Origin: Chloroflexi bacterium HGW-Chloroflexi-9
GTDB lineage: Bacteria; Chloroflexota; Dehalococcoidia; UBA2979
Reading direction: 5' to 3'
Assembly: GCA_002840675.1 (NCBI GenBank)
Contig: PHBR01000005.1
Coordinates: 1 to 56,469, forward strand
DNA: 56,469 nt
Every line of letters starts with the position of its first letter. Position 1 is the first letter of the stretch. A program made the position numbers and the translations under genes. Below the pieces are notes generated by a model. It was not told where the DNA came from. It made no database searches and was given only the letters and a program-made list of their open reading frames with translations. Shown here one piece after another: positions 1,943-53,601 of this stretch.

Positions 1943-2102
1943 TTCCGCCCCGAGATCGTGTTGGCATCATGTCAACCCTCGGGATCGGCCGCTTCGTGCG
2001 GGAAACCCCTGACGGCCATGAGCCCTCACCTGCGGATAGTCCTCCCACACGTGGTGGGTGCCCGGGGCGTGCCCCGGCGAAGGAACGGACCGACAGGTGA
2101 AG

Positions 2103-4145: not shown

Positions 4146-4157
4146 GCGCGCTGGCGA

Positions 4158-4204
4158 CGCGAAGAGCCCATCCGGGATAACCCCCGCCGGGTGGGCTCTT
4201 CGCG
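4158..4204. terminator. Hairpin between convergent genes, probable bidirectional terminator
   Basis: CGCGAAGAGCCCATCCGG ... CCGGGTGGGCTCTTCGCG inverted repeat between the MCP stop and the 4207 ORF stop. Confidence 0.7.
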
Positions 4205-4206
4205 GA

Positions 4207-4623
4207 CTAGCCCGCGCGCGACAGGAGGGCGCGACAGGCGTCCGCCAGGCCGGGGAGCCCAGTCGCGCTCTTCTCGACGTGCACAACCCGGCCGCCGTCC
4301 GACAGACCACCTGGCAGCCAGGGGAGTTCCACAGAGAAGACGACGACGGTGAGCGCTGGATGGCGGGCCACGGTCTTCCCGATCCAATGCGAGACGTTCG
4401 CGCCGGACAGACGGACCTCCGTCACCAGCTGGTCGATCCCCCCCTGACCCAGCAGCGCCGTCGCCTCGTCGCGGCCCCCTGCCGGCCGGCAGCGGACACC
4501 CGGGATCGAATACTCAAGCAGGTCGCAGACCACGCCGCGCAGCAACGGCTCATCGTCCACGACCAGAAGTTGCCACTGCACCTCATCCGGCACCGGCAGC
4601 CCCCCACGTTTTCCCCGACGCAT
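4207..4623 (-). CDS. Single-domain atypical receiver protein (start uncertain)
   Basis: LLVVDDEPLLR receiver start; the phospho-acceptor position reads LVTEVRL (Glu instead of Asp). Confidence 0.75.
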   Translation of the reverse strand: MRRGKRGGLPVPDEVQWQLLVVDDEPLLRGVVCDLLEYSIPGVRCRPAGGRDEATALLGQGGIDQLVTEVRLSGANVSHWIGKTVARHPALTVVVFSVELPWLPGGLSDGGRVVHVEKSATGLPGLADACRALLSRAG

Positions 4624-4672
4624 CCGGCCCGAACGATCCGCCTTCGACCCCCGGTCACCGCCGTCCGTGCGG

Positions 4673-7158
4673 CTACATCGCTGGTTCGCGGTCCATGTGG
4701 GGGCCTTCCGCAGCCGGATGGCCGCCGAGGTGAGTGGTCACACTGGCGATCAGAGTGTCAATGGGGAATGGCTTTTGAATGACGCCGACCGCCCCGCGGC
4801 GGAGCGCATCAGCCGCCTGCACGGAACCGCTGACGATCACGACGGGCGGGCCGTCCGGGTGTGTCCGGATGCGTGAGAGCACGTCCCATCCGCTCAGCCC
4901 GGGCATATTGAGGTTCAACAGGACCAGTCTAATGTCGTCGCGCAGGCGCAGGATCTCGAGCGCCGCCTCACCCGCCGGCACCGCGATCACCGTATATCCC
5001 CGCTGCTCCAGTGCCGCCGATACCACATCGCGCACGCTCTCTTCGTCGTCGACGATCAGAACCTGAGGGCCCTGGCGATGCGCTGTCGCAGCGGACATCA
5101 GGTCGGGCTCTCCATCCGGGATCGTCGGGCAGTCGATCGTGATCGTGGTCCCCACGCCAAGTTCTGATTCCGCTTCGATGACCGCGTCAATCTCTCGGAC
5201 GATCTCGCGGACCATCGTCATCCCCAGGCCCGTACCCCGCCCGCTGCCCTTCGTCGTGAAGAAGGGATCGAAGAGATGCTGCTGCGTCTGGGTAGACATT
5301 CCGGCGCCGTTGTCGGAGACGACGATCCGGACGAATTGCCTGCCTTCCGGCCTCGTCGCGATCCCGGCGGCCACGCGGATCTCCGGGGCGTACCCCGGCC
5401 CGGCATCATTCGCGCGCTCCAGTGTGGCATCACGGGCATTAAGCAGCAGGTTGAGCAGCACCTGTTCAAGGCGAGACGGGTCCGCCAGGATCAGCGGCAG
5501 GTCGCCGGACCGGAACACGCTGATGCTCACGCGCCGGTCAAACGTCTCTCGTGCGAGTTCCACCGTCCCGCGGATCACCTCCCAGACATCCGTGGGCTGG
5601 AGTTCGGAGGCGAGCGGGCGAGCGGCGTGCAGGAGCCGGCGGACGACGGAGGTCGCGCGGCGGGCGGCCCCGGAGGCATGGTCGAGCCAGCGCGACGACT
5701 GGCCCCGAGCGCTGATCTCCAGATCGAGCGCGCCAATGATCGCAGTCAACAGGTTATTGAAATCGTGCGCTACCCCGGCCACCAGTGTGCCCACCGCAAC
5801 GTCCCGCTGGTCGTTTAGGATGCTCTCCAGCAGCCGAAGCCGCTCCGTCTCCTGATCTGACCGCAATGTGAGGTCATGGATCACCCCGGTAAAGATCCGG
5901 TGGCCGTCCGCCGTCCGCGACTCGGCGATCCTCAACGAGATCGGGAACTGATGCCCGTCACGATGGAGGGCGAATGCCGGGCGCTCGTGCCCGATGAACA
6001 GTCCCGCATCGGTGGATGCTTCTCCGGTCTGTAGATAGTGCCGCATGAAGCCATCGTGGTGGGACGCGAACGGCTCCGGCATCAACACCGTCACGCTGCG
6101 GCCGGTGAGATCTTCCGCCGCCCACCCGAACGTGTCGGTGACGGCTGGATTGGCTGCAACGACGATGCCGTCCTCTCCGATCACGATGATCGGGACGGGC
6201 GCGGCGTCCATGATGCTCTCGCCCTTCGCGACCTCATACCCGACCTGCTGTCGGAGGGCGACTTCCTGCGTGACGTTGCGGAACTCCGAGAGCGTCGCGA
6301 CGCAGCGCGCACCCTCGAAGATCGGCGTCACCGCCACGACCACGTCGACCAGCGTCCCGTCCGAATGCAGCCGCCTGGTGAGCGTCGGTGAGAGCACCTC
6401 ACCCTGCACCATCGCGCGGACGTGGTACTCCCGGAGTTCGTCCACGCGATCGGGGGGACCAGGCGGGCCCCGCTGGAGCCGATGATCTGTTCCGACTGAT
6501 AACCCAGCATGTCCGCCAGCGCCTGGTTGCAGTACAGGACCGTTCCCTGCTCGTCCATCACCAGGATGCCGTTCTGCATGGATGCCACGAGCGAGGCATA
6601 CCGGCGCGTAGCCGCAGCCTCCTGATCGGCGAGCACGCGGATCCTTCGCGCCGCGACCAGGCTGGCTCCAATGCCAATGAGCGTCCCGGTAAGGGTCAGG
6701 ACCACGCCGGCCGCAGCCAGCCGTCGCACGGCGTTCACGGACTCCGAGCGACGCTCTGCGACCACATCCAGCAGCGCATCGACTTCCAGGGCAATCGGCT
6801 CGGTCAGGGGTAGGAGGGGGGGCTGGGGCTGCTGGGCGGCGGCAGCCTCAAGTGCTTCGAACCCGGCTTCGATCCGGTCGAACGCCGCGCGGGTCGTGGC
6901 CGCGCCGGCCACGCGCGTGATGTCCGGCTCGAGCGCCTGCGCCCGCGCGACGCGTGCCTCGTGCAGTTGCACCAGCCGCGCCTCGTCGCCGGTGCTCGCA
7001 GCGCTGCCGATGCGCTCCGCGAACGCTCGCAACTCGCCCAGGTCCGCCGAGGCACGCGATGCGTCCTGGATGCTGCCCATCGTGAATGCGATGAAGCCCG
7101 CTGCGGTCAACGTTACGAGGGCTCCCGCCACCCAGCTCCATCGCAGAAACAGCCGCAT
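4673..7158 (-). pseudogene. Membrane PAS-PAS hybrid histidine kinase, frameshifted near 6452-6457
   Basis: ORF 6328-7158 (2 TM + PAS start) and ORF 4673-6445 (PAS, H-box VAHDFNNLL, N-box NLLLNARDA, DNGAGM, FDPFFTTK..GTGLG, receiver) join if one base is added to the G6 run (LVPPDRVDEL). Confidence 0.85.
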
Positions 7159-7355
7159 TCAAGCCTCCCTCTCGCCATACTTGCCTCGGGCCTTATACCA
7201 CCGCCCCGTTCCACCCGCCGTTACTCCAGTTGCTGCTTCCCGGGCACGGCCCAGGGACGCCCCGGAGGCTCGTCCCGACAAGGTTGCAGGCGCGGCGGCA
7301 GGGGAGACTCGGCAGGGCTCTCCGACCTCATCCAACATCAGAAGTCGGAGCCGGC

Positions 7356-7771
7356 CGAGGCGACCGCAGGCTCAGCATCGTTGGGGCGTCAGAGAAGGCG
7401 CATCTGTTCGCCGTCGCCGGAGCCGAAGCGGTCCGCGACGGGAGTCCAGCCGTCCTGCGATGCAGGACGAGCGCCCACGAGGACGGGGAGGGCTTCGGGA
7501 GCGAAGTCCCGAGCCTCGAAGGCTTCCTGCGCTGTGTTGGCGACGACACGCGCCTCGGCGAACAGCGCCTCGAACGATTCCTCGTTGACCTCACCGCCCC
7601 CCGCGAGTGACCGCGCGAGCTCAAGCGTGAGGTTGTCGCTCTCCGCTCCGTGTGCCGCTAGATCGCCGTCACCGATCTCGCCTTCGACGATCAACGGCGC
7701 CTGGAGATTGTGGGCGACCAGCAGCAGCGCTTGCGCCTGGAGCGTGGCGCGGTACGCGAAGTAGATGACGC
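7356..7771 (-). pseudogene. Diverged copy of the 3' end of the ICE helicase gene (matches 23155-23576)
   Basis: YFAYRATLQAQALLLVAH...GEQMRLL is nearly identical to the C-terminus of ORF 23188-25341, and the downstream intergenic sequence also matches. Confidence 0.9.
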
Positions 7772-7781
7772 CCTTCGCTAC

Positions 7782-7836
7782 TGGTGTCGGGGGAGGGGGT
7801 CGAACCCTCACGCTCTTTCGAGGCGCGGGGCTTAAG
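7782..7836 (-). mobile_element. att site: 3' half of tRNA-Leu (TAA-like anticodon)
   Basis: Minus strand CTTAAGCCCCGCGCCTCGAAAGAGCGTGAGGGTTCGACCCCCTCCCCCGACACCA has an anticodon loop, long variable arm, T-arm and CCA; no D-arm or 5' acceptor strand upstream. Confidence 0.85.
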
Positions 7837-7918
7837 AGCGAAGCAGGTAGTCCACTGACGTGTCGGGGGCGTCCGCGTGAAGCCACGCGGCGCCCCTGCT
7901 CGTCCACGTAAGGGTGCT

Positions 7919-7952
7919 GGGAGCCACGCGTGGCTCCCGGTGTGGCTCCCGG
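7919..7952. repeat. Three GTGGCTCCC copies (one inverted, two direct), putative tyrosine-integrase arm-type sites
   Basis: GGGAGCCAC-GC-GTGGCTCCCGG-T-GTGGCTCCCGG, about 85-115 bp inside the tRNA-Leu fragment. Confidence 0.6.
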
Positions 7953-8554
7953 ATTGGCCCTCAGCCGGGCGGCGGCACGCCGCAGTTCATGCATCACTAG
8001 AGGGGCGTTTAGGGGCGTCAACCGACGCCATTTCAGATTCGGAATCGCTGGCGCGTCTCCACGATCGGTCATGTCCGTTCACGGGAGTGGCCTCCTAGTG
8101 GCCTCCTGTTCTCGGGCGGTGCCGGAGTGGATGGGCCAGTGCCGACCACGTTCTCACACGTTCGTCGTCGTCCACCGCCGTCCGCGATCGTCCACTATTG
8201 GCCAGGGGTATCTCCCTTTTCGCGCAGCGCTTTGGTGCAGTTGTCCGTCTGGTTCGTCACTGCCCATTGCATGTGCGACGGCATCGAATGGCCTGCCACG
8301 GGTTCGCTCGCGAGTCGCCTGAGCAGAATCGGCACTCATCCTGTACGTCCAGGGCAGGATGAGGCTCCGTCGTCGTGAGTTGGACCATGGGCCGCATGGA
8401 TACAAGACACGCGCGGTGCGCCACGCGATATGTGATCGGGTGACGAGTTGCTCCGCAACGAAATGGATGCTGGGTAGATCGGACGCCGTTTCGATAGCAT
8501 CAGGGTGCCCAATGCCCAGAGTCCAAGTCGTCCTCGGGCTGTCGAGGGGACGAG

Positions 8555-9241
8555 GTGAACGAGATACCTCCCGAAGATCGCACTCAGTCCGCGAGAGACG
8601 CATACCGGTTCTTAGCAGCCCACGAAGGAGAGCTCGTCACGTATCAACAGGTATCTGACGCCACCGGCGGTGTGTGGTCGGTGGGCACGGTTGGGAACTA
8701 TCGCTCAAAAAAGTGGAAGAACCTGGTGATCCGAGAGGGTCGTGCCCACCGCGTTCGGGGTGTCGCGCTAATGACGGAGCACGAGTTCGTCGGACTCCAG
8801 AGCCAGGTTCGAGAGGCCGTCATCGACCCCCGTGTCCAGGTCATTCAGGACGCCGTCGCTGTCGGCGAAGGACAGCGGACTGAGTTCAAGGCTCAAATTC
8901 CGAGGACCGCGTCCGAGCTCGCAACCGAAGTCGCGTCGTTCGCCACATCGGGAGGCGGGGTGATTCTGATTGGGGTCGACGACGGCGGGGCAGTGATTGG
9001 CTACGAGGGCAACAAGGAACGGATCGAGGGGATCATCCAGAACGTCGCACCGGTGCCGACCGCGACGGTCGACCTAGTCCCCTACCGAGAGAAGCAGATC
9101 GCACTCGTTCGCGTGCTGGGAGGCCCCGAACCACTGTATTTTGCGAACGATCGACCGTACTTGCGTCAGGGAACTCTCTCGCGTCCGGCGACGCCGGCGG
9201 AGGTCATGACCATCTACCGACAGTATTTTCGACATGGATGA
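8555..9241 (+). CDS. AlbA_2 (Schlafen-like) domain protein with N-terminal putative wHTH
   Basis: GEGQRTEFK, EVASFATSGGGVILIGVDDGG and YLRQGTLSRPAT motifs. Confidence 0.85.
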   Translation: MNEIPPEDRTQSARDAYRFLAAHEGELVTYQQVSDATGGVWSVGTVGNYRSKKWKNLVIREGRAHRVRGVALMTEHEFVGLQSQVREAVIDPRVQVIQDAVAVGEGQRTEFKAQIPRTASELATEVASFATSGGGVILIGVDDGGAVIGYEGNKERIEGIIQNVAPVPTATVDLVPYREKQIALVRVLGGPEPLYFANDRPYLRQGTLSRPATPAEVMTIYRQYFRHG

Positions 9242-9341
9242 TGCATGGAGCCGTACGGGGAAGCGCGAAAAGTAATGCTGGCGAACGGCGACCCTCGCCG
9301 CGGTCATCGCCTGGTTACCGAACGAGGAGGGTTTCGCGAGC

Positions 9342-10946
9342 GTGGACATTCTGTCGTATAACCCCGGTCACGACGGTGCCGTCGCCCACCTTCGCGATGG
9401 TCGCCTCCTCTTCTCCGTTGAAGCGGAGAAGGACTCCAACTGGCGGTACAGCCCGATCGCCGGCCGTGACCTGCTCGACGCCTTTGGCCGGCTAGAGGAA
9501 GTGCCCGATGTCGTGTGCACTGGAGGCTGGTGGCCGCGCGAGGCGCGTCTGACCGGGTCGCCGTTCCATGTTGGGTATCGCGGCATCGCGAAGGACACAA
9601 TCACCGTGGACCGTGGAGCCTTTTTCGGAAAGTCGGTCCCTTTCTTCTCCTCCTCCCACGAAAGGTCGCACCTGCTTTGCGGATTCGGCATGTCGCCCTT
9701 TCCTCAAGGCTCTTCTTGCTATGCGCTGGTGTGGGAGGGGGCGATCGGCGCGTTCTACGAGATCGATCCAGATATGAACATCACACGGATCGGCGACGTG
9801 ATGAACGAACCGGGAAACCGGTATATGTCGATCTACGGATTGGCAGATCCAACTTTCCCGAAGAACGCACCGTTCTCCCGCTGGTCGGATGCGGGCAAGT
9901 TGATGGCACTCGCCTCTTTCGCTCGAAGGAGCACGCCCACCGCCGAGGAGGAGGAGTTGATGGCCTTCCTTCTATCCTCTCAACACGTTCGACTTGACCT
10001 CTACGACCGACTTGAGTCGTCCGTGTATTACAACGTGGGCACGGATGACACAGAATTTCGAAATTTTGCCGGCATCTTCAGCGACAGAATCTTCGAGACT
10101 TTCCACCGTTTTGCGAAGGCGAACTTGCGCAAAGGGTTGCCGTTGGTCATCGCGGGAGGTTGCGGCCTGAACTGCGACTGGAACACGAAGTGGAGGGAGA
10201 CCGGCATCTTTTCCGACGTCTTTGTGCCACCCGTTGCCAACGATTCCGGTTCAGCGATCGGGACGGCGATCGACGCTCAGCTCCATCTCACCGGCGATGC
10301 CAAGATCGAATGGGATGTCTATTCCGGACTACCGTTCAGGACGGATGCACCTGTCGTTCCCGGTCGCTACGACGTTCGAGACGCGAACTCCGAGGAGGTA
10401 GCTGACATGCTGAGTCAGGGCCTGATCCTCGGGTGGGTCAGCGGCCGGTATGAGATCGGTCCTCGAGCTCTCGGTAATAGGTCCATTCTCGCCGCGCCAT
10501 TCGATGACAGCACCAGGGTGCGCTTGAACGAGATCAAACAGCGCGAGCAGTTCCGACCCATCGCGCCTGTCTGTCTGGAGGCTGATGCAGCACGTTGGTT
10601 CGGCTGCGACCACGAGAGCCCGTTCATGATGTTCACCTACCAGGCCAACACGGACGCGCTGGCCGCGGTAACGCACGTGAACGGCACGGCCCGCCTTCAG
10701 ACGGTAAGCCAACACACGAACGCCCGACTCTACGACCTGCTCATCGCCTTCAAGGCGCGCACAGGATATGGAGTGCTGTGCAACACCTCCCTTAACTTCA
10801 GCGGGAAGGGGTTCATCAACAACCTGACGGACCTCGACACCTACACCGTGGAGCGTGAATTGGACGGATTCGTGGTTGAGGGGCGCGCGTATCTCCTCCG
10901 GAGTTCCGAACGCTACAGGGCGTATCGGAAGGACGGGGGTGAATGA
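9342..10946 (+). CDS. O-carbamoyltransferase, CmcH/NodU/TobZ family
   Basis: GHDGAVA, HERSH, AGKLMALA, AGGCGLNC, PVANDSGSAIG, EIGPRALGNRSILA, KQREQFRPIAP, HVNGTARLQTV, LCNTSLN; GAGGAGG RBS. Confidence 0.95.
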   Translation: MDILSYNPGHDGAVAHLRDGRLLFSVEAEKDSNWRYSPIAGRDLLDAFGRLEEVPDVVCTGGWWPREARLTGSPFHVGYRGIAKDTITVDRGAFFGKSVPFFSSSHERSHLLCGFGMSPFPQGSSCYALVWEGAIGAFYEIDPDMNITRIGDVMNEPGNRYMSIYGLADPTFPKNAPFSRWSDAGKLMALASFARRSTPTAEEEELMAFLLSSQHVRLDLYDRLESSVYYNVGTDDTEFRNFAGIFSDRIFETFHRFAKANLRKGLPLVIAGGCGLNCDWNTKWRETGIFSDVFVPPVANDSGSAIGTAIDAQLHLTGDAKIEWDVYSGLPFRTDAPVVPGRYDVRDANSEEVADMLSQGLILGWVSGRYEIGPRALGNRSILAAPFDDSTRVRLNEIKQREQFRPIAPVCLEADAARWFGCDHESPFMMFTYQANTDALAAVTHVNGTARLQTVSQHTNARLYDLLIAFKARTGYGVLCNTSLNFSGKGFINNLTDLDTYTVERELDGFVVEGRAYLLRSSERYRAYRKDGGE

Positions 10947-11875
10947 GCTCGATGAGAAACGATCCGGAGAAACCGCTGATCGCGCCGGCACCGGACGTCG
11001 CTCCTGTAACACAAGACGCTCGGCGAGAGATCTCGGCAACGGATGGGTACCCGCCAGGCTTCGAAGAGGACGACCGCCTGCGGTCCGACTTCATTCGGCA
11101 ACTAACGCTGCGGCAACTAGGACGCGATCGAGCATCGTCGACAGGGGAGCGCACAGATCAGACGGTGCTCATACCAAGAACGCTAGTGCGGTTTTGGAAC
11201 GACCCGTGCGATGTGCCGCAGGATGTCCGCGATTGCCTGAAGACTTGGGACGCGCTGCGCGATGAAGGATTCGCGTTCCGGATGTTCGGCGACGCATCGG
11301 CAGCCGCCTACATCGCTGAGCGGTATGGTCCCCGCGAGCTCGCCGCTTTTGCGCGATGCAGGCATCCCGCAATGCGCAGCGACTATCTACGCATGTGCTT
11401 CGTGTTCTCGGAGGGCGGCCTTTACGTCGACGCCGACGATGTGCTGCTGGGTGACGGCTGGAAGGACGTCTTCCGCGACGGCACGCTGAAGATCCAGCCG
11501 CTGTGTTACGACGTGACCGCCGGGGGCATGGTGTCGGCGTCTGAACTCCGGCGAACGGACTTGCCGACGGACGATCGCATCTTCTACGTCAACAATAACC
11601 CGATCGCCGCCCCAGCCGGTCATCCAGTCTTGCGGCGGGCGCTGGTCCGCGCGACCGACAGACTGCTCGGAGATGAGCCAGCCCCGGAGATTCAGTCGAC
11701 GACAGGCCCCGGAAACCTCACCGCCGCCTTAGCCGCGCACGCCCGCGAGTCGCAGGTTGGGGGCAACCCGCCGGACTTCGAGCTGCTTCTCGACTGGGAG
11801 GGGATCGCGGAGCCGTGCTGGGACCTCGCCTACCGCAACGACGCCCGCAACTGGCGCAACATGGACCTTCGCTGA
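10943..11875 (+). CDS. GT32-like DXD glycosyltransferase
   Basis: IPRTLVRFW, AMRSDYLR, GGLYVDADD, TTGPG; ATGA overlap with the carbamoyltransferase. Confidence 0.88.
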   Translation: MSSMRNDPEKPLIAPAPDVAPVTQDARREISATDGYPPGFEEDDRLRSDFIRQLTLRQLGRDRASSTGERTDQTVLIPRTLVRFWNDPCDVPQDVRDCLKTWDALRDEGFAFRMFGDASAAAYIAERYGPRELAAFARCRHPAMRSDYLRMCFVFSEGGLYVDADDVLLGDGWKDVFRDGTLKIQPLCYDVTAGGMVSASELRRTDLPTDDRIFYVNNNPIAAPAGHPVLRRALVRATDRLLGDEPAPEIQSTTGPGNLTAALAAHARESQVGGNPPDFELLLDWEGIAEPCWDLAYRNDARNWRNMDLR

Positions 11876-11900
11876 CGCGTAGGAACGGGGCCAGCCCTCG

Positions 11901-14015
11901 ATGAATCTCAACAAAGTGCTCAGTCCGATGCAAACACTCGCGTTCCGAACCTGGCGCTCACTGATCGTGTCTCTCCCAGGTGCCCGAATTCGGGCCTTCG
12001 GCGGAGACCCAGGCCAGATTGCAGCGGTCATAGTCATAAATCTAGACAGGCAGCCGAGGCGATGGCGGCGCGTGAAGAGAGAGCTACGCCGGTTCCGGAC
12101 GTACGAAGGCGTTCCGTTGACTTCGATCACGCGGCGGCTGGCAGCGGTCGATGCTCGGGACGGTCGGGCCGTCGCAGCGACCGTCGACGTGGACGCGATG
12201 TATCGAATCGGCGATCAGTTGTACGTGCAGCCAGACGCGCGGCTGGCGGAGTGCTTCCCCGAGGACGAGCCGGTGCGGATGACGCGGCAGGAAGTGGCGG
12301 TGGCCCGGTCACACGTGGAGGCCTGGAAAGCTATCGCGAACGGGATCGACGATTACGTTCTCGTGCTGGAAGACGACGTCTGGTTCACGCCCGGCGCCCC
12401 GGCCGCTATCGATCGCGGCTGGCGCGCAGCCCTCAGCCGGTGCGCACTCGAAGGCGGCCCGAAGCTGCTCTACTTTTCATACAGTGACGCTGGTGGATCC
12501 GCGGCGCGGGTCGATGTTTGCGACAGCCTATTTCGAGCTGTGCGCGGTCTGTGGCACCTCTCGGGATACGTGCTCTCGCGCGAGGGAGCAGCCGCGCTCC
12601 TTCGTGCAATGCCCGTCGTCGGGCCCGTCGACCTCTGGATGAACTACCGGTTTGCCGAACTCGGTGCGCTCGCGCTCACTTCGCCCGTGATCGCACAGAG
12701 GCGGGACGAAGCATCGGACAATGCTTATTCGGTCCTGCCATATCTGGCCAAAGCCGGCATCATCGATGCGGGGCACGGAGCTAAGCCCCCGAATCAGCTC
12801 CGCACCGGTCCAGTGCTGGCGTGGACCGGGGGCGCGAAGCGGGAAAGCCTCGCCATGGCGCTGTCGATGCTCGGGCTGCGCGTCCGTGCGTTCGACGGCG
12901 ACGAGGAGCCGATGCACGAGCGAGAACTGCACGAGGTATTGAAGACGTTCGACGCTCTCGTTAACGCTCCGCTCGTGCCCGCCGCGCTCTCCGCCGCGGC
13001 GGCGGACGGGCGCTCGGTGATCCTTTTGGAGGCCGACGCGCCGCCGCCAGCGGGTTTGGAGCCACACCGGCTGCCGCCGTTGCGGTCGGCCGTCCTGGCA
13101 CCCGGCGACTCCTGCGACGGATCGTGGGAAGTCCTCTGCGGCGCGTTGGGCCTTATCAAGCCAACTGAAGCCTTCCCGGCCGGAGCTCCGCGAGATCTTC
13201 GCGTATTCCGAGACGACCACCCGACCGGGCGGCTCGGATCTGCTGCGCGGGTACTGCGGGACGACCGCCAGATGGACGATTCGCCATGGATCCTGCCATC
13301 GTCGAAGGGCTGGCGGCCTGGACCTATCGCGGGCCGTTTGGTGTGCCCACCCGGCCTGCCCGTCGCCGAGGCCTCGATGACAGAGGCGTCGACATCATTC
13401 CCTGGCCTTGTTGGAACGTTTCCAGGCAACCTAGCGTCGTTTGCGCGGGAGAGTGTCCAGTACGGCGTCGAGGGCGCGCAACTAGTGCTCGATGCGGTCG
13501 AAGGCGGACGACGCCCCTACCGGTCGGGAGCCTTCGCGTCCGTGCGCTCATTCGGGCATGGGCGTTTTGAGGCCGAGATTCGGGCGGCGCCGGGCTCGGG
13601 GCTCATTACTGGTTTCTTTCTGCATCGGGACACGCCGCGGCAGGAGATCGACATCGAGTTCGCGGGGCATGATCCCCGGCGCATGTTGGCCAACGTCTTC
13701 TTCAATCCCGGCGACGATGGCACCGCGATGTCCTTCGGCTACCGCGGCTCGCCCTATTGGATCGATCTCGGCTTCGACGCCACCGCGGACTTCCATCTGT
13801 ACGCCATCGACTGGCAGCCGGACCGTGTGGCCTGGCTGGTAGACGGCGTGATTGTCCATGAGCGTGTCAGCTGGGATCCGACACCCATCCCTCACTTGGA
13901 CATGCGCCTCCATGCCAACCTTTGGGCACCCCGCTCCGAGGAACTCGCCAGACGGATAGACGAGAGCACACTGCCGGCGGCCGCTGCCTTCAGGAACGTA
14001 TCGGTCAGGGCCTGA
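11901..14015 (+). CDS. GT25 glycosyltransferase + degenerate sulfotransferase-like domain + GH16 hydrolase fusion
   Basis: GT25: VINLDRQPRRW, SHVEAWK, LVLEDD, GYVLSREGA, PVDLW. Middle: SLAMALSMLG...WEVLCGALG..P.EAFP. GH16: EIDIEF, DFHLYAIDW, WLVDG. Confidence 0.85.
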   Translation: MNLNKVLSPMQTLAFRTWRSLIVSLPGARIRAFGGDPGQIAAVIVINLDRQPRRWRRVKRELRRFRTYEGVPLTSITRRLAAVDARDGRAVAATVDVDAMYRIGDQLYVQPDARLAECFPEDEPVRMTRQEVAVARSHVEAWKAIANGIDDYVLVLEDDVWFTPGAPAAIDRGWRAALSRCALEGGPKLLYFSYSDAGGSAARVDVCDSLFRAVRGLWHLSGYVLSREGAAALLRAMPVVGPVDLWMNYRFAELGALALTSPVIAQRRDEASDNAYSVLPYLAKAGIIDAGHGAKPPNQLRTGPVLAWTGGAKRESLAMALSMLGLRVRAFDGDEEPMHERELHEVLKTFDALVNAPLVPAALSAAAADGRSVILLEADAPPPAGLEPHRLPPLRSAVLAPGDSCDGSWEVLCGALGLIKPTEAFPAGAPRDLRVFRDDHPTGRLGSAARVLRDDRQMDDSPWILPSSKGWRPGPIAGRLVCPPGLPVAEASMTEASTSFPGLVGTFPGNLASFARESVQYGVEGAQLVLDAVEGGRRPYRSGAFASVRSFGHGRFEAEIRAAPGSGLITGFFLHRDTPRQEIDIEFAGHDPRRMLANVFFNPGDDGTAMSFGYRGSPYWIDLGFDATADFHLYAIDWQPDRVAWLVDGVIVHERVSWDPTPIPHLDMRLHANLWAPRSEELARRIDESTLPAAAAFRNVSVRA

Positions 14016-14184
14016 GCGGTAGATCGCACAGGGGCCGGAGTAACAGAATCTGCCTGGTCTCGTGTGCGTGGCCCATCAGCGCCGCCGCCCACGCCAGTCC
14101 GCGAGATTGTCGAGATGACAGATGAAGAAGGAGTCGCTTCCTGGTCGGCGCGATGCGCGATGCGCGATCGGTAGGTCGGTTCAG

Positions 14185-14212
14185 TGGCACCCTCGGGAGG
14201 ATTCGAACTTCC
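14185..14212 (-). mobile_element. Degenerate tRNA 3' end (Arg-like), probable att remnant
   Basis: Minus strand GGAAGTTCGAATCCTCCCGAGGGTGCCA = T-arm, acceptor 3' strand, discriminator and CCA; the rest of the tRNA is absent. Confidence 0.65.
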
Positions 14213-14369
14213 GTCCCGCGGACCCGTGTCAGGAAGATCAACCGCTAGGCAGCGACGGAGGGATGCGACTCACAACTCCTGTCAACCTATAGGCGGAGCG
14301 CGACGGGACAAGCTACACGCCGAGTCGCTCGCAGACCCACTGCTACAGTTCGGGCGTGTGAAAACAAAG

Positions 14370-14381
14370 GAACGAGTGTTC
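14370..14381. promoter_or_regulatory. Possible LexA/SOS box (GAAC-N4-GTTC)
   Basis: GAACGAGTGTTC in an intergenic region; no clear target gene. Confidence 0.35.
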
Positions 14382-14473
14382 TCGCCGCGCACTGGAGCGC
14401 TCAGCGATCCACTTGATCGTCGAGGGCTGCATAACCGGGTTGGTTCACTTTCGTGTTCGAGCTTGAGGCGAAG

Positions 14474-16591
14474 CTATACGACCATCCGGATGGGCGCCGT
14501 GTCCGTGGAGACGGCCGTGGCCTTGATCTCGGGGCCTTGCCGACCCCACCCCTCTAGTTCGATCCATACAGTTCTTTGGTTGTCGCGGACTGGGCGTAGC
14601 TTCCTGGCTAGGAGTTGTGCGAATCGAGCATCGTGCGTCGATACGACTAACTGACGCTGGTCTCTCGCGCGCCGGAGTAGATCGATAAGCCCCAAGAGAT
14701 TCACGTCGTCGAGGCTCTGTAGCGGGTCGTCGAGGAGTGCTGCTTCGAGTCTGAGGGTGGGCATTCCCAAGTTAAACGCAAGGAAGATGGCAACTGCGAG
14801 CGCATTCACCTGGGAGCTTGAGAGGAACTTTTCTGGGGTTTGCGTAGAGAGAGGAGTAAGCGGGTCGTCGAGGACCGCAGAGAGCTGCCCGCGCCGGCGG
14901 AACATGCGGGTATCAAACCGAGCCCGTCTGAATATTGGGTGCGGATCCATTCTGCCGTAGATGCGGCCAAGCAATGGCTCGATGTCCTTCAGCGCCAAAT
15001 CGACCAGAGATTCGGTCGCATTCTGGAGGTCCTCGATGATCGTCCGGCTGAGATCGGCGGTTCGCCTCCGACCATTCAGCTGGTACAACTCTGCCGTCAA
15101 CTGTGTCTCTAACCTACGAATCGTCTCCTCGCGTTCTGTTCTCAGGCTGAACTCAGACACTCGGCTCAGCAAGAGCGCGAGTGATTCTCCCGATGCACGG
15201 AGGGCTGATAGGCCTTCAGTGACGCGTTCGAGGTTTGCGAGTTCGGTGGCGACAATCTCGGGAGTTGCAGACTCGGGCAGGTCGAGCGCCTGAAGCTGCC
15301 GCTTCAACGTCGCATCTCGCACTCGCGCTGTCCGTTCGGCTTCGGTGGCTGCAACCAATTGGGCAACGATCCGTCCCTGTTCGATCTCGAGGTTTCGAAG
15401 ATCGAGTGTGAGTGCAGGTAGCTGCTGCTCGTCTGTCGTCGTGGCAGGAGACACGCCCGAAGCAACTATGAGTTCGAGCCTTGCTCGCGTGTCAGCCACT
15501 ACATGGAGTTGATTGCATACGGGACAGATCTCGGTCAGATCCTGTAGCGCGAGGGCGGCGAGTGCCTTGAGTCGTTCCACCGACTCCGCTAGTTCCGTGA
15601 GCCTCCTCCTCTCTTCTGCAATGCGCTCACGCGAGCGGGCCAGTTCAGCTTGTACGGCGAGGATCCGGCCATTGACTTCTTCGGCGCTTACGCGAAGCCG
15701 CTCAGCATCAAGAGGCGCGACGTCTGCCGGTCTCGTTCGCAGGTCCGAAAGAATTGTTTGCATCTCGGCGGCCCGACGTACCATCGGGCGCATGCGCGCG
15801 TCTGCTTCGTTGACAATTGAATTGAGAGCCCTGGCTCGGTCTGCGCCTAGATCGGATATTGAAAGACCGAGCTGGGTTGCAGAATGGATCCAAGAATCCC
15901 ATTGAAGATCGACCTCAGCCGCTGCCGTTGTTTCAGGACTCAGCGCGCTCAGCTCCGCGCGCGCCGCATCCAGCAGTGAACGCGTGCGGGCACTGCCTTG
16001 TTCAGCATGAGTAGTAGCCGTGTTCCAACCGCGCTGCGACGATTCCAGCTGCCTCTGGAGCTCAACGACCTGGCCGACGCCGACCAACGTTTCAACTAGC
16101 TGGAAACGAGCCTCCGGGTCATCCTCGTCGACGAACGCTCGTACGACATCTTGCTGCAGGTACAGGCTGCGCGTGAAAACGTGGCGTAGCCGTGGAAGCG
16201 GCTCGGGCTCGGCGGAACCCTCTGGCCATAGCGCTTGGAGTAGGGCGGCTTCAGCCGACGGTCCTCGGAGCACTGCCGAACCGTCCATGGAGAGGGCGAT
16301 GCCCGATGAGTTGTTCTCGATGGAGCGAGTGACATTCAGCTCGCGTCCACCGTCCTCACGGAGACGGAGCGATACCGACGCGGTCGCTGTATCGGAGAAG
16401 AGCGACACGAGCTCACTGTCCGGGCCAATGCGCGGCACGGCTCCCGTTAGAGCCCACATGATTGCATCGAACAGCGACGTCTTCCCCTGGCCGTTTGGCG
16501 CCGAGACGATCACGACGTCGGCGTCGAGATCGATCGTTCGACGTTGCGGGAATCCGCGGAAGCCAGCGATATCGACGGACACGAGTCTCAT
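14474..16591 (-). CDS. lmuB: Rad50/SbcC-like ABC ATPase of Lamassu / ABC three-component system
   Basis: Walker A APNGQGKTS, YLQQ Q-loop, CPVC zinc hook in coiled coil, LSSSQ signature, LLDDPLQSLDD Walker B/D-loop, STHD; ATGA overlap with the middle component. Confidence 0.82.
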   Translation of the reverse strand: MRLVSVDIAGFRGFPQRRTIDLDADVVIVSAPNGQGKTSLFDAIMWALTGAVPRIGPDSELVSLFSDTATASVSLRLREDGGRELNVTRSIENNSSGIALSMDGSAVLRGPSAEAALLQALWPEGSAEPEPLPRLRHVFTRSLYLQQDVVRAFVDEDDPEARFQLVETLVGVGQVVELQRQLESSQRGWNTATTHAEQGSARTRSLLDAARAELSALSPETTAAAEVDLQWDSWIHSATQLGLSISDLGADRARALNSIVNEADARMRPMVRRAAEMQTILSDLRTRPADVAPLDAERLRVSAEEVNGRILAVQAELARSRERIAEERRRLTELAESVERLKALAALALQDLTEICPVCNQLHVVADTRARLELIVASGVSPATTTDEQQLPALTLDLRNLEIEQGRIVAQLVAATEAERTARVRDATLKRQLQALDLPESATPEIVATELANLERVTEGLSALRASGESLALLLSRVSEFSLRTEREETIRRLETQLTAELYQLNGRRRTADLSRTIIEDLQNATESLVDLALKDIEPLLGRIYGRMDPHPIFRRARFDTRMFRRRGQLSAVLDDPLTPLSTQTPEKFLSSSQVNALAVAIFLAFNLGMPTLRLEAALLDDPLQSLDDVNLLGLIDLLRRARDQRQLVVSTHDARFAQLLARKLRPVRDNQRTVWIELEGWGRQGPEIKATAVSTDTAPIRMVV

Positions 16592-17175
16592 GAGTTCGCG
16601 TCGTCTCTAAGCGCGTGAATGGCTTCGAGTAGAGGTTCGTCGTTCCGGAAGGCGTCAATCAGCGTGCGTACAACGTCTTCGTCGACACCAGCCGCGGCTA
16701 GAACGGGAGGTAGGAGCAACATGACGTCCGGGTGCTGGTTCGCTCCCGGTGTCATCTCAAGCGGAAGCAATGGTGACAAGAGTCGTTCGATGTCGCTGAT
16801 CGCCCGAATGTCCTCGCCAGATGCGACGAGTTTGCGTGCCCGCGTCGTGTCGTACCGGATCCTATCGCCTTGCTCGTATCGGTCCCTAGCTTCGTCAGTC
16901 GTAATCAGTACCAGGTAGCCGTCCCAAGTCTTCGGTTCGCCGCGACGCCAATAGTTGGAGATGATGTCGACAAAGCTGTCTTGCGCCCGTGGCCACTGGT
17001 CGATCAGGTCGCCCCATGTGTCGTAGATCACGAGACACACTACAGAGTATGGGTCTTCAAACAGGCGGCCAGGGTCGCCGTCGGAGACCGCGTTCACGCG
17101 AGTGAACCCGCCTTGCTCTAGAGCCTGTGAGGCGGCGGCAACCGCCGCTGCGGTCAACGGGATCGAGCTAGTCAT
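16588..17175 (-). CDS. lmuC: ABC-3C middle component (MC1-like)
   Basis: WDGYLVLI...IRYDTTRARKLV resembles the MC1 pattern; lies between effector and ATPase with overlapping stop/start codons. Confidence 0.7.
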   Translation of the reverse strand: MTSSIPLTAAAVAAASQALEQGGFTRVNAVSDGDPGRLFEDPYSVVCLVIYDTWGDLIDQWPRAQDSFVDIISNYWRRGEPKTWDGYLVLITTDEARDRYEQGDRIRYDTTRARKLVASGEDIRAISDIERLLSPLLPLEMTPGANQHPDVMLLLPPVLAAAGVDEDVVRTLIDAFRNDEPLLEAIHALRDDANS

Positions 17176-18553
17176 GCACGAACTCACGAATCCTCACCGG
17201 ATTCTGCCGGAGCGCCTGCAAGTCAACGAACTCGGGACCCAGTGCTGGCGCGAGGATGCTGTCGTGCTGCTCGTCCATCGCAATATCCATGGGCATTGCA
17301 GTGTCGGCAGCCACACCCGTCGCGCCCGAAACGATGGCCACGGTCGGGGCAGGCGAATGCTCTCGCCATCTATACGCATATCGAATGGCGTCATCTTCGA
17401 TGCCGTGCCAGGATCTCACGCCGCGACCCGTGAACAGAAGTATGGAGCCGGCGAAGCTCTCGCCACGCCAGAATTCAACAACGCCGTCGGAGGACACTCG
17501 CGCTATCGCTGTGGTCTCTTGCTCGATCCATCGGATCACTAAGAGGAACAGGCCAATCTGATCGAGATCGACAGTCCGATGTGGCTGGTAATCCGTGCGG
17601 GAAAGTATCCAGGTCGCCCGCAGGCGGCCAAGCCCTACGAGGCCGATGGAGACCCATCGCCGGGAGAGATCAGAAAGGCCGACGCTATCCCATGGGCCTT
17701 CCGGCGCGAGTTGCATGCATCGCGCCTCCAGAGCGGCTCGGTGCTCTTCAGCGACGCGTTCAGCGAGCTGACGCATCAGATCGCCCCAGCCGAGACGAAT
17801 GTAATTGGCTTCGGATATCTGGAGTTCGCCGAAGAATGCTGATGCGGCCGGCTCCTCAGGCCCGACTTGATAGATCTCGCCCGCGATAGCTACCGACCGA
17901 ACCTTCGAGAGGGTCGCGGCCAACAGCGTCGCGGCGGAGCCAAGACCAACGAAGAGGACGACCGAAGCTGCTAGGAAGCGAGCAGCGACGACCTGCTCCC
18001 ACGTTCCCTCCCATTCTGGCTCGAGTCGGGCTGGGCGGAGGATCCATTCAGCGGGCGGACGTTGCGCGCTTCGATGGAGGTAAACGAGATTCAGGAGCCC
18101 AAGGCTCGCACTGTCCCCGGGGCCCTCGATGATCGCAACGTCGTCTCGAGCGTCGAGTTCGACTAGGGCATGTGTGGCAGCGAGGTCATAGTTCAACGTT
18201 AGCAGGGAGCCGATGATCTGCTCGCGCATCAATGCTGCCGCGATCAGGTAGCCATCGTTTGGCTTCGCCATCTGAAACCGACGAACCGGCATCCGCTCGA
18301 CGAGCGCCTCCTGAGCGCCGGTCTTCTCGAAGACCTTGTCAGCCACTGACGCCAGGTCTCCCGGATCGCCGACATCGCCATCAACGAGAATATGGTCAAC
18401 GACGAGTCGCCGAAATGCGTCGGATGAGAGTGCCGCGGCAAGAGGCAGATCGGTCGGCGGTTCAAGTGAGCAGCCTGCACCAACTACCAGCACCACGTTT
18501 CCAGGTGCCGGATTGGCAACTGCATGAAGAAGGCTTGCGGGAATGTCTGGCAA
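17168..18553 (-). CDS. lmuA: SIR2-domain effector with C-terminal domain
   Basis: VVLVVGAGCS, LLTLNYD, LVYLH and VLFVGLG sirtuin motifs; TTG start at 18553 follows an AGGAG RBS. Confidence 0.78.
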   Translation of the reverse strand: MPDIPASLLHAVANPAPGNVVLVVGAGCSLEPPTDLPLAAALSSDAFRRLVVDHILVDGDVGDPGDLASVADKVFEKTGAQEALVERMPVRRFQMAKPNDGYLIAAALMREQIIGSLLTLNYDLAATHALVELDARDDVAIIEGPGDSASLGLLNLVYLHRSAQRPPAEWILRPARLEPEWEGTWEQVVAARFLAASVVLFVGLGSAATLLAATLSKVRSVAIAGEIYQVGPEEPAASAFFGELQISEANYIRLGWGDLMRQLAERVAEEHRAALEARCMQLAPEGPWDSVGLSDLSRRWVSIGLVGLGRLRATWILSRTDYQPHRTVDLDQIGLFLLVIRWIEQETTAIARVSSDGVVEFWRGESFAGSILLFTGRGVRSWHGIEDDAIRYAYRWREHSPAPTVAIVSGATGVAADTAMPMDIAMDEQHDSILAPALGPEFVDLQALRQNPVRIREFVHD

Positions 18554-18790
18554 TCGAGCTCCTGGGGCGGCGGCTAGGTATTGCGCGGTCAGCCTACGCG
18601 AATCTGATGACTTGGGGAGGCTGCGGATGCACCGGCAGGACGGATGGCGCGAGAGCCCCGGCTCTGGATACGTCACCTAGGCCGCCCATGTCCCATCGGT
18701 GGTAGGGATGAGGCCGGGTAGGGAAGCGCAATCTGATGCTGTTTAGGGACGGGACTGGTCGGTCTGCGTGCGGCTGGCAGCCCGCGCCGC

Positions 18791-19559
18791 TCACCACCAA
18801 TGCCATCCGGTTACCTGAGATACGGTGCCGACGACCGTGGCACTGCCCACCAGACCGCTCAAGGCGAGTGCCCACTTCGGCGCGTGACGCTGCGGTCGGG
18901 TGACGACCACCTCGCTCGGCCCCGAGGCTTGAACGGGAGCAACATGGACTCGGTTGCCTTTCCCGTGGATCACGACTTCGACCGCCTGATTTGCTACGTC
19001 CGCCGATGGAACAGCGGCGTGGTCGGGAGTCCCCGCGCGCATTTCCGCTACGAGCTCGACCAGGCGATTGCGAACCTGGTCGACGATTCCCGCGAATGCG
19101 GTGGGCGAGGCGTTCCAGTACACCTCGTGGACCACCGCGAAGGGGTTACGGAGTTCCATGGTCATCATCCGTGCAACGTCGGCACCGCCAGGGAACGAGA
19201 GCTTCAGCTCGGTCCGTTGCGCGAGTCGCTCAATTTCGTCGATGCCCGATGTGACAGTAACCTCCTCGCCGCAGCGTGCGGCAACAACGGCGGGCAGGTC
19301 TGAGCGGCTGATTCGCTCACGCTTGTATTGGAAGTTGCCGCGGATGCCGTCGATGCAGATCGGCGCGAATATTCGGCGCCGGAAGACCGTCTTCGCTTTC
19401 GTAGCCTCGCAGTTCTCGCCCGGCCCACTCCCGGAGTTCAGGGCTGCCCGCCCGGCCCCCGAGGGCGACACATGCACGCAGACCATCGGCAAGGGAATGC
19501 TTCCCCGACAGCGCTGCTTCCTCGATCTTCCGCAAGAGATCGGTCTCGTCTCGCCGCAT
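18791..19559 (-). pseudogene. AbiTii-domain protein, frameshifted near 19380
   Basis: Frame 1: LLRKIEEAALS..SLADGLRACVALGGRAGSPELREWAGRELRGY..DGLP; frame 2 continues RRIFAPICIDG...GIVDQVRNRLVELV; hydrophobic C-terminus. Confidence 0.75.
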
Positions 19560-19644
19560 CCTTGGCCTCCGCGCTCAGCCAGGTACGCTTTTCGGATGCG
19601 GCCTGGGTGCAATTCATCAACGTCCGTCGCTGGCTCTCTCGTCT

Positions 19645-20676: not shown

Positions 20677-20712
20677 GTTCGAGATGAGCGGGAAGTTGAC
20701 GATATAAGCACA

Positions 20713-20742
20713 TATGTACGCCTGGGTGGGTGCACCTGTCAA
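20713..20742 (-). promoter_or_regulatory. Sigma70-type promoter for the PIN gene
   Basis: TTGACA-18 bp-TACATA on the minus strand upstream of ATG 20676. Confidence 0.5.
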
Positions 20743-21087
20743 GACTTCGATCGGCCGATCGAACGGATTAGCATTTCTTTGGAATGCTTAAGGAGCCTGG
20801 CAACGGAGCTCGCGAATCTCGTGGAGCACGAGGCTCGATACTTGGCGGGAGTGCGCGCTAGCCTCTCGCCTAGCCCAGGTACATTCATCGAGTCACGGTT
20901 CTCGAAGCAAAGACGTCTCGGCTCGCGTATTTGGCGATGTACGCCGCGACTGCGGCACACTTCACAGAAGGCGATGTCTGCTAGGTGCCGAGCGGCGACA
21001 CCTCGTGGTCGCTCATCTCTACGCGAAGGAAGAGCTGCTCGGGCCGTGCTCCGCTGCTAGGGCGGTGCAGCAGACCCGAGCTGTTCC

Positions 21088-23070: not shown

Positions 23071-23187
23071 GCTGTCTCTCCTCCTTGGGATCAGAGTTGG
23101 CGGGCGCGCGTTGCGCCCGGTCGTCGAGAGCGCGGGAGCCAGCGGCGCATCGTTCGAGGCGACCGCCGGCTCCGCGTCGTTGGGGCG

Positions 23188-53591: not shown

Positions 53592-53601
53592 TCTACCTCG
53601 G

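Follow-up and report, generated by a model that had tools for sequence, protein, structure and literature searches.

A gene cassette containing three genes was identified in a 56,469-nucleotide (nt) contig of Chloroflexi bacterium HGW-Chloroflexi-9 (GenBank assembly GCA_002840675.1, contig PHBR01000005.1). The entire 56.5-kb contig was analysed and is referred to here as the window; its source is a 2.5-Mb metagenome-assembled genome that is 82% complete. The three genes encode, in this order, an O-carbamoyltransferase, a GT32-like glycosyltransferase and a fusion protein in which a GT25 glycosyltransferase domain is connected by a linker to a GH16 domain (Table 1). Together they form an enzyme cassette that is self-contained and moves horizontally. 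The preferred reading, to which a probability of about 0.45 is given from the sequence evidence, is that the cassette serves as a cytoplasmic glycan-building or glycan-editing module in conflicts with phages or mobile elements. The enzymology proposed for it is probable, and the role in conflict stands at roughly even odds. Documented below are the genes of the cassette with their catalytic motifs and folds, its mobility and its genomic surroundings.

The order of the three genes is conserved across genomes and metagenomes. Among species-representative genomes, 14 loci were found to hold a true relative of the fusion protein, and at 11 of the 13 assessable loci all three genes are present in the window order, three of these 11 carrying frame breaks or a truncation. 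From 80 metagenome contigs fetched, which include seven near-duplicate pairs, 59 were assessable and 21 were cut by contig ends; the three genes occur in the window order at 54 of the 59 (48 of 52 when near-duplicates are dropped). Three of the other five assessable loci are without the carbamoyltransferase gene, and two, which are duplicates of each other, keep only a remnant. The hosts named in the record titles of the genome loci are Solirubrobacterales, Acidimicrobiia, Nanopelagicales, Nocardioides, Chloroflexota, Allosphingosinicella, Dongia, Rhodobacteraceae and Roseovarius, and the host breadth of the cassette covers Actinomycetota, Chloroflexota and Alphaproteobacteria.

The boundaries of the conserved unit are sharp on both sides. 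Blastn homology with seven relatives (L015, L030, L032, L034, L035, L038 and L039) begins at positions 9278-9284, about 64 nt upstream of the first start codon, and stops at 13999-14029, about 14 nt past the last stop codon; in L015 it stops at the contig end. When 852 flanking open reading frames were clustered, no family was common to more than nine loci. A preliminary description of this DNA had proposed that the operon is discrete defence-island cargo. Its discreteness is borne out by the kept gene order, the varying flanks and the confinement of homology to 9278-14029. Defence genes do recur as neighbours, but the cassette is equally the cargo of plasmids and of integrative and conjugative elements (ICEs). 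No direct or inverted repeats bracketing the cassette were found in a repeat search of 7000-22000, and a transposon-like structure was therefore rejected.

The three genes are tightly linked and carry the domains that had been named for them, as the open reading frames and Pfam matches agree. The start codon of the GT32-like gene overlaps the stop codon of the carbamoyltransferase gene (ATGA, an overlap of 4 nt), and a gap of 25 nt separates the second gene from the third. The conserved leader contains a GGAGGG ribosome-binding site 8-13 nt upstream of the GTG start codon of the first gene and a hairpin-like repeat, GGCGACCCTCGCC. A promoter and terminator scan of 8000-14600 gave no promoter-like sites and six terminator-like sites, against 3.8 +/- 2.2 expected. 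The G+C content is 0.59-0.66 over 8-21 kb of the window, compared with 0.68-0.70 on both sides.

A relative of the fusion protein was found in none of 40 relatives' genomes, in none of 400 other genomes of the same phylum and in five of 5426 complete Escherichia coli genomes. Full-length relatives are present in nine of 72,556 plasmid records; a further 134 plasmid matches cover only the GH16 part and are of the ordinary ExoK/lichenase kind, and 80 of the 143 matching records belong to Sinorhizobium. The fusion and the GT32-like protein matched none of 50,697 phage records, and the only cassette locus in IMG/VR is itself flanked by Gabija genes; a phage origin was rejected on these grounds. 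In the fusion tree, the window protein is nested in an Actinomycetota-dominated clade, a placement that indicates transfer between phyla since its host belongs to Chloroflexota. Decayed copies have also been identified. In a Roseovarius locus (L016) the fusion is truncated at residue 208 and lies beside Mu-type and IS21-type transposase genes, a Chloroflexia locus (L012) contains several frame breaks, and in a Solirubrobacterales locus (L006) the GT32-like gene is reduced to its final 28 residues. The cassette has therefore been lost as well as gained.

The first gene encodes a carbamoyltransferase of the TobZ/NodU/CmcH family, in which both family domains exceed the Pfam gathering thresholds: Carbam_trans_C (PF16861, E = 5.5e-54, 182.7 bits, cut-off 27) and Carbam_trans_N (PF02543, E = 1.9e-24, 87.2 bits, cut-off 24). 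The Kae1-like N-domain contains the motifs GHDG, HxxxH and NDSG, and the YrdC-like C-domain contains GPRALGNRS. H10 of GHDG, H106 and H110 of HxxxH, D301 of NDSG and G373-S381 of GPRALGNRS are invariant in 16 orthologues; the His/His/Asp set of the Kae1-like domain we take to be the equivalent of the metal-binding residues in TobZ. The sequence matches in the PDB are 7xb6, GdmN, NovN and TobZ, and GHD and GPRALGNRS align to the solved enzymes. The protein scores 251.1 bits against a cut-off of 1000 for the NodU equivalog NF041651 and is not NodU itself. Outside the cassette, the closest carbamoyltransferase, with 48% identity, is encoded on L108 (MT837218.1, an unverified 'Bacteriophage sp.' scaffold), where the gene is located between a nitroreductase-family gene and a major facilitator superfamily (MFS) transporter gene (3104-6996); this context looks like small-molecule tailoring and export, not a phage function. 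The closest enzymes from verified phages show just 26-31% identity. The cassette carbamoyltransferases form a dedicated clade of their own, tied to the GT32/GT25-GH16 pair.

The GT32-like protein encoded by the second gene matches Gly_transf_sug (PF04488) with E = 3.9e-5 (24.7 bits, cut-off 23), and the same family was matched in all 48 aligned relatives (best E = 2.6e-16). In its DxD motif, D163 is invariant and D165 nearly so. The predicted structure has a pLDDT of 89.9. Its top Foldseek match is Och1 (9n3s, E = 4.5e-10, TM 0.46-0.49), followed by the protein-glycosylating GT-A domains of YeGT, PaTox, SetA, Lgt1 and TcdA/B; over all of these matches, E ranges from 4.5e-10 to about 3e-3, probability from 0.97 to 1.0, TM from 0.3 to 0.5 and identity from 8 to 19%. 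According to the model, the protein has a GT-A fold that is nearest to the solved GT32 member, Och1. The PGAP name of the E. coli homologue is 'glycosyltransferase family 32 protein'. Relatives of at least 400 residues number 21, and both of the two examined (P0222 and P0268, distant relatives within 540-745 residues) carry tetratricopeptide (TPR) repeats N-terminal to the glycosyltransferase domain. This architecture recalls O-GlcNAc transferase and hints, by analogy, that the GT32-like family can act on proteins.

The third gene encodes the fusion protein, with matches to Glyco_transf_25 (PF01755, E = 1.7e-7, 31.7 bits, cut-off 24) at its N-terminus and to Glyco_hydro_16 (PF00722, E = 5e-28, 98.2 bits) at its C-terminus. 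Hundreds of near-full-length relatives share the GT25-GH16 architecture, for which the RefSeq label is just 'family 16 glycosylhydrolase'. Among the matches listed there are 119 homologues with 69-94% identity, of which 65 are exactly 704 residues long and 118 contain both Pfam domains; their source names include Micromonospora, Acidimicrobiia and Candidatus Poriferisodalis. The residues E157-D158-D159 of the GT25 domain are invariant in 20 aligned fusion sequences, and the [LIV]EDD motif is present in 118 of the 119 listed homologues. E582, D584 and E586 of the GH16 catalytic motif (E582-I-D584-I-E586) are likewise invariant in the alignment, and E[IV]D[IV]E was found in 116 of the 119. The GH16 domain, to judge from these residues, is catalytically intact. 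In VIA comparisons, the GT25 domain (model residues 39-278) matches Mimivirus R655 (9crz_B) with Z = 16.2, and the GH16 domain, a beta-jelly-roll, matches the lichenase 3i4i with Z = 29.1 and a root-mean-square deviation of 1.9 over 205 residues. The VIA matches to the 704-residue model are mainly GH16 chains; two rows span the GT25 domain and none spans the linker. The linker has a beta-alpha-beta pattern in the model and few invariant polar residues; Pfam gave no known-family match for it, and an ESM Atlas query of residues 295-500 gave no usable match.

The three proteins contain no segment of membrane-helix length or of the classical signal-peptide kind, the highest 19-residue mean in a Kyte-Doolittle hydropathy scan, used here in place of a dedicated signal-peptide predictor, being 1.44. 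This agrees with the earlier remark that signal peptides are not obvious. All three are predicted to be soluble and cytoplasmic. Their isoelectric points of 4.7-6.3 (acidic to neutral) do not favour DNA binding but are still compatible with it. An N-terminal helix of the fusion is cationic and amphipathic, with a hydrophobic moment of 0.45-0.75 and a net charge of +2 to +4 in 19 of 20 sequences.

The GT32-like and fusion genes constitute the invariant core of the cassette, since this pair occurs without the carbamoyltransferase gene and, where that gene is present, it may be located upstream or downstream of the pair. The fusion tree, with midpoint rooting, has two deep clades. In the clade of the window, the carbamoyltransferase-less lineages (Dongia L010, L103, L078 and L081) are basal under this rooting, whereas the second clade consists of plasmid and ICE forms, whose fusion is 35-38% identical to that of the window. 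The pair without carbamoyltransferase was found on a Klebsiella IncFII plasmid, an Aliarcobacter plasmid, an IMG/VR locus and an E. coli ICE; together with these Klebsiella, Aliarcobacter and E. coli elements, the carbamoyltransferase-less loci are L010, L078, L081, L103 and L021. The gene lies downstream of the pair on a Citrobacter IncC plasmid and on the Rhizorhabdus plasmid pSWIT02. The Citrobacter and window carbamoyltransferases are 63.5% identical, whereas the fusions are 38% identical, and the tree path between the two is about 0.7 for the carbamoyltransferase compared with about 3.1 for the fusion. The joining of the carbamoyltransferase to the core in two gene orders is, at the sequence level, good evidence for functional coupling. 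The enzyme is nevertheless not indispensable to the cassette, as it is absent in some lineages. The expectation that it is kept beside the glycosyltransferases thus holds for 54 of 59 metagenome and 11 of 13 genome loci, and fails in so far as the gene lies outside the invariant core.

In the Klebsiella michiganensis IncFII plasmid (L026), the pair is bracketed by two genes for tyrosine recombinases of about 200 residues in the leading region, between psiA and hok (6687-11948), and may represent a recombinase-mobilised mini-cassette. In the E. coli ICE (L109/L110), an ABC-three-component system of three genes, including one for a 1045-residue SMC/AAA ATPase, is located 8 kb from the pair (1-4180).

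Such positions bear on the proposal that the cassette is a counter-defence or establishment gene of conjugative elements, its enzymes being expressed early after transfer and neutralising a defence of the recipient; they might, for instance, glycosylate a protein of the host or the DNA of the element itself. The Klebsiella pair lies between psiB/psiA and hok in the leading region, the E. coli pair lies between ArdC and MobC/type IV coupling protein genes, and at a distance of 7-12 kb from the cassette the window encodes a ParB-like protein, a helicase and a DUF6094 methyltransferase. Leading regions are described in one study as enriched in anti-defence genes (PMC11541004). The chance that this proposal is correct is nevertheless slight. 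The main text of that article contains no glycosyl- or carbamoyltransferase; at many loci the cassette sits in a chromosomal island next to Gabija or restriction-modification genes, and the 10 kb seen there hold no genes for conjugation; and the window cassette is on the strand opposite to parB.

Defence and mobility genes recur in the flanks of the cassette. In the genome loci, the flanking proteins include DNA methylases, HNH, IrrE/HTH, HTH_17, MerR, RHS and transposases, and further ones are DUF6602, DUF4238, an Endonuclease_NS-trypsin protein, MqsA and a ParA-like protein. The flank clusters of the metagenome loci include GajA (eight loci), tyrosine integrases (seven), GajB, PDC-S06 and serine recombinases (four each) and ThiF/E1 (three), and IS110, IS21 and IS481 transposases recur. 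A PADLOC scan of 127 nearest-neighbour proteins identified four as GajA; 188 families were matched in all, mostly redundant GajA models. Annotation of the mobile elements gave DUF262 protein and adenylate/guanylate cyclase genes on a Rhizobium plasmid; RES-Xre, ThiF/multiubiquitin, VapC, Fic and TraG on a Sphingobium plasmid; IS21 and DUF262 on the Citrobacter IncC plasmid; Lit, Shedu and a patatin-like protein on the Aliarcobacter plasmid; ParB, PsiB, PsiA, two small integrases, HNH and Hok on the Klebsiella IncFII plasmid; insertion sequence (IS) elements and Abi on the Rhizorhabdus plasmid; and the ABC-three-component system, ArdC, MobC and a type IV secretion system in the E. coli ICE. This regular association with defence and mobile-element genes points to conflicts with phages or mobile elements as the field of action of the cassette, and away from the synthesis of ordinary envelope polysaccharides.

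The neighbourhood was also inspected for genes of exopolysaccharide (EPS) or lipopolysaccharide (LPS) clusters. None of the 40 nearest flank proteins matched glycosyltransferase, polysaccharide-export or nucleotide-sugar families, and the eight records inspected for their annotation show no gene of EPS/LPS type within 9-12 kb, so the full-length relatives do not sit in such clusters. The absence of exporter, polymerase and sugar-nucleotide genes that had been pointed out for the window likewise extends to the relatives examined. A further possibility is that the cassette remodels the envelope at the inner membrane face by decorating a universal lipid-linked precursor, such as lipid II or an undecaprenyl-linked glycan, so that the changed surface would mask phage receptors, exclude conjugation partners or resist lytic enzymes. 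The conserved cationic amphipathic helix of the fusion, of a kind frequent in peripheral membrane glycosyltransferases, and the additional match to Caps_synth in six of 48 GT32-like relatives would suit this possibility, as would the facts that characterised GT25 enzymes act on lipooligosaccharide cores at the cytoplasmic face and that mobile elements carry surface-glycan modifying cassettes. However, no flippase, membrane glycosyltransferase or export gene is present in or beside the cassette at any locus examined, the actinomycetotal, chloroflexotal and proteobacterial hosts have differing envelopes, and a cytoplasmic GH16 domain is ill-suited to a lipid-linked pathway; envelope remodelling is accordingly considered quite unlikely.

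The core of the cassette can be described as a GT32-like, retaining-type GT-A glycosyltransferase together with an inverting GT25 glycosyltransferase fused to a GH16 beta-glycanase/transglycosylase. All four catalytic activities target sugar hydroxyls or beta-glycosidic bonds, and action on one glycan is therefore the parsimonious reading. From this we infer a reaction order, an acceptor and a role. In the first step, the GT32-like enzyme would place the first sugar on the acceptor (priming), and the GT25 domain would then add one or more beta-linked sugars. In the third step, the fused GH16 domain would trim, release or transfer the beta-glycan, and in the last step the carbamoyltransferase, where present, would cap a sugar hydroxyl using carbamoyl phosphate and ATP. 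The occurrence of the cassette in both monoderm and diderm hosts and the lack of a sensor, exporter or sugar-nucleotide gene suggest that the acceptor is either universal to bacteria or supplied by the invader.

In a bolder form of this proposal, the cassette would represent a new class of immunity or counter-immunity in which enzymes add, remove or carbamoylate sugars or hydroxymethyl groups on invader molecules, glycan chemistry taking the place of nucleases or NTP depletion. Candidate targets are hydroxymethylated or glycosylated phage DNA and a phage or plasmid protein; their editing would disarm protective modifications or block replication, and the four activities would form a tool-kit for different decorations. 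Invader editing would account for the irregular presence of the carbamoyltransferase and would require no acceptor specific to the host; it is put forward as a speculative idea that is probably not correct in this form.

Several observations weigh against a glycan module used in conflict. The association with defence genes is qualitative and amounts to guilt by association, and some flanks consist of housekeeping genes (G6PD, LysR, Ppx, SDR and ABC transporters). None of the PADLOC-DB 2.0.0 families was matched at E <= 1e-3 by any of the three cassette proteins, and the cassette is without the sensor or nuclease-type effector that is usual in defence systems. The Pfam score of the GT32-like protein of the window is barely above threshold (24.7 against 23 bits), the model of the fusion is mediocre (mean pLDDT 65.9), and the cytoplasmic GH16 domain is without an obvious partner substrate. 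The decayed copies in L012, L016 and L006 indicate that selection for the cassette is not universal. Finally, the solved relatives of the carbamoyltransferase (GdmN, NovN and TobZ) mostly tailor small-molecule antibiotics.

The last point leads to a small-molecule pathway, in which a free carbamoylated oligosaccharide or glycoside would be made from universal precursors, or a xenobiotic would be glycosylated and carbamoylated. The product could act as an inhibitor, as a signal or as a solute for storage or stress, and the island location would reflect only the accessory status of the genes. The activity of the best solved carbamoyltransferase relatives, the nitroreductase-family and MFS transporter genes adjoining the 48%-identical enzyme of L108, and the action of all four enzymes on sugar hydroxyls or glycosidic bonds are consistent with such a pathway, and cyclic glucan synthases are glycosyltransferase-glycanase fusions that make and release oligosaccharides. 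It is still fairly unlikely. The cassette is not accompanied by any gene for export, regulation or precursor supply, several lineages do without the carbamoyltransferase, and the genes that recur beside the cassette serve defence and mobility and not metabolism. The GT32-like enzyme is moreover closer to protein- and glycan-directed enzymes than to natural-product glycosyltransferases, which mostly belong to GT1.

The coordinates of the cassette and of the features around it are given in Table 1. The neighbours named earlier, AlbA_2 on one side and Lamassu on the other, are both present.

Table 1. Features of the cassette and its surroundings in the window.
Feature	Position	Strand	Basis
Cassette leader, conserved 64 nt	9278..9341	+	blastn homology with relatives begins at 9278-9284
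O-carbamoyltransferase, TobZ/NodU/CmcH type, 534 residues	9342..10946	+	Pfam, PDB sequence matches, invariant motifs
GT32-like GT-A glycosyltransferase, 310 residues, DxD D163/D165	10943..11875	+	PF04488, model, Foldseek
GT25-linker-GH16 fusion, 704 residues, N-terminal cationic amphipathic helix	11901..14015	+	Pfam, alignment, model
GT25 domain, residues 39-278	12015..12734	+	PF01755, VIA, invariant columns
Linker, residues about 295-480	12783..13340	+	no Pfam match; secondary structure from model
GH16 lichenase-like domain, residues 481-704	13341..14012	+	PF00722, VIA, E[IV]D[IV]E motif
AlbA_2 (Schlafen-type) neighbour, outside the conserved cassette	8555..9241	+	SLFN_AlbA_2 PF04326, 2.4e-13
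Lamassu-type SMC ATPase LmuB	14474..16591	-	PADLOC LmuB 1.7e-44; AAA_23 and SMC_N Pfam
Left tRNA-like 3' remnant, long variable arm, CCA	7785..7860	-	by eye; GGTTCGACCCC match
Right degenerate tRNA-like remnant (T-arm, acceptor, CCA)	14184..14259	-	by eye at about 14184-14225; ARAGORN at 85% threshold
AlbA_2 and cassette block shared with metagenome contig L037	7978..14222		blastn

The three genes had also been placed between two tRNA remnants. Strings resembling tRNA can be seen by eye on both sides, but the standard searches with ARAGORN and Rfam gave nothing and the bracket holds four genes. ARAGORN with default settings called no tRNA in the window, and Rfam gave no match at E <= 1 in 7000-22000. 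Relaxed ARAGORN thresholds gave 13 and 50 mostly spurious calls, and the right-hand remnant was reported, as c[14185,14259], just at 85% of the thresholds among the 50. The left-hand remnant was called neither by ARAGORN, even when relaxed, nor by Rfam; it is located upstream of the AlbA_2 gene, so four genes and not three lie between the two strings. The AlbA_2 gene is outside the blastn homology of all relatives except L037, which is 94.4-94.5% identical to the window over 7978-9330 and 9313-14222 and otherwise has different surroundings. An IS481-type transposase is inserted in L037 between these two pieces, the AlbA_2 part and the cassette part. The homology stops inside the right-hand tRNA-like string, which provides independent support for the four-gene bracket, and 7978-14222 is the probable island unit in this lineage. 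A third tRNA-like remnant, at 53536-53610 on the minus strand, corresponds to the 3' two-thirds of a sequence like tRNA-Gly(CCC), in which the T-loop reads GGTTCGAATCC; it was found by ARAGORN at the 90% threshold only. The presence of several such 3' remnants on a single contig suggests that integrative elements have inserted repeatedly.

Other genes on the minus strand of the window are also of note. Two genes encoding proteins of 199 and 502 residues, with no Pfam or PADLOC match, are located upstream of LmuB in its operon (16588-18676); they could be the LmuC and LmuA of a Lamassu variant in divergent form. A gene for an AbiTii-like protein (PADLOC, 1.2e-12) overlaps a gene for a 365-residue PIN_2-domain protein (18791-20742), and the two may form an abortive-infection pair. 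At 21088-26384, three consecutive genes encode a ParB-like protein (TIGR03734 PRTRC_parB, 4e-19), a ResIII/Helicase_C helicase and a DUF6094 methyltransferase. Plasmids and ICEs typically carry such a trio, and the contig may therefore be a conjugative element or contain one.

If the cassette is a conflict system, two GT-A transferases, a GH16 enzyme and an O-carbamoyltransferase would join the mechanisms of bacterial immunity or plasmid establishment. If it is metabolic, the GT25-GH16 fusion would still be an uncharacterised enzyme architecture with a dedicated carbamoyltransferase clade. The cassette is readily testable, being compact (3-4.7 kb) and strongly conserved. It ranges from groundwater Chloroflexota to soil Actinomycetota, and the copies on plasmids of types IncC and IncFII and in ICEs of E. 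coli provide natural versions in a tractable host.

No paper describing the cassette was found in the literature searched; the supplementary tables of defence surveys, which lay outside that search, might list it. The enzyme families are known, and the fusion, the conserved combination and the mobile, defence-associated setting appear to be undescribed. The cassette carbamoyltransferase has the same two-domain architecture as TobZ, NodU and CmcH and has GHD/HxxxH/NDSG and GPRALGNRS in common with them, but differs in its divergent N-domain, its separate clade and the lack of an antibiotic or Nod-factor pathway around it. The best folds for the 310-residue protein are those of Och1/GT32 and the GT-A toxin domains (YeGT, PaTox, SetA, Lgt1 and TcdA/B), with which it has the DxD in common. 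Unlike the toxins, it contains no delivery, membrane-targeting or receptor domain and shows no sign of eukaryotic targets. The GH16 domain has the fold and the E-I-D-I-E motif of GH16 lichenases and ExoK-type EPS glycanases; these are secreted, single-domain enzymes, whereas the cassette GH16 domain has no signal peptide and is fused behind GT25. The gtrABC genes of temperate phages are mobile surface-glycan modification cassettes that encode membrane proteins, including a flippase, and act on the O-antigen. The cassette resembles them in that a few glycosyltransferase genes on mobile elements alter, or would alter, the outcome of phage encounters, but none of its products is a membrane protein, and its hosts are not only those with LPS.

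Enzymes of the carbamoyltransferase family are also involved in conflicts between phages and hosts. The earlier statement that phage homologues act on 5-hydroxymethylcytosine (5hmC) is borne out by a published study, according to which a phage enzyme of the same family carbamoylates 5hmC (Yang et al. 2021, eLife, PMC8670742). As described there, enzymes of this family are able to carbamoylate hydroxymethyl groups carried by DNA, RNA or deoxynucleoside triphosphates in phage-host conflict, the phage 5hmC carbamoyltransferase co-occurs with a thymidylate-synthase-like hydroxymethylase, and the TobZ positions W408, G421 and R423 are singled out for it. No thymidylate-synthase-like dCMP hydroxymethylase was found in the nearest flanking genes of the loci examined. 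The cassette enzyme, unlike the phage enzyme, is located on cellular mobile elements.

Glycan chemistry in immunity has so far been represented by just isolated cases such as the BapA deglucosylase. The Brig3-BapA defence operon encodes a host enzyme by which the sugars attached to phage DNA are edited (Mejia-Pitta et al. 2026, bioRxiv 10.64898/2026.02.25.707755), which provides a precedent for glycan chemistry as immunity. BapA has an ASCH fold, not GH16, and partners a DNA glycosylase, whereas the cassette contains no glycosylase or nuclease. Neither the phage 5hmC enzyme nor BapA is homologous in architecture to the cassette, in which two glycosyltransferases, a GH16 domain and, in most loci, a carbamoyltransferase are combined.

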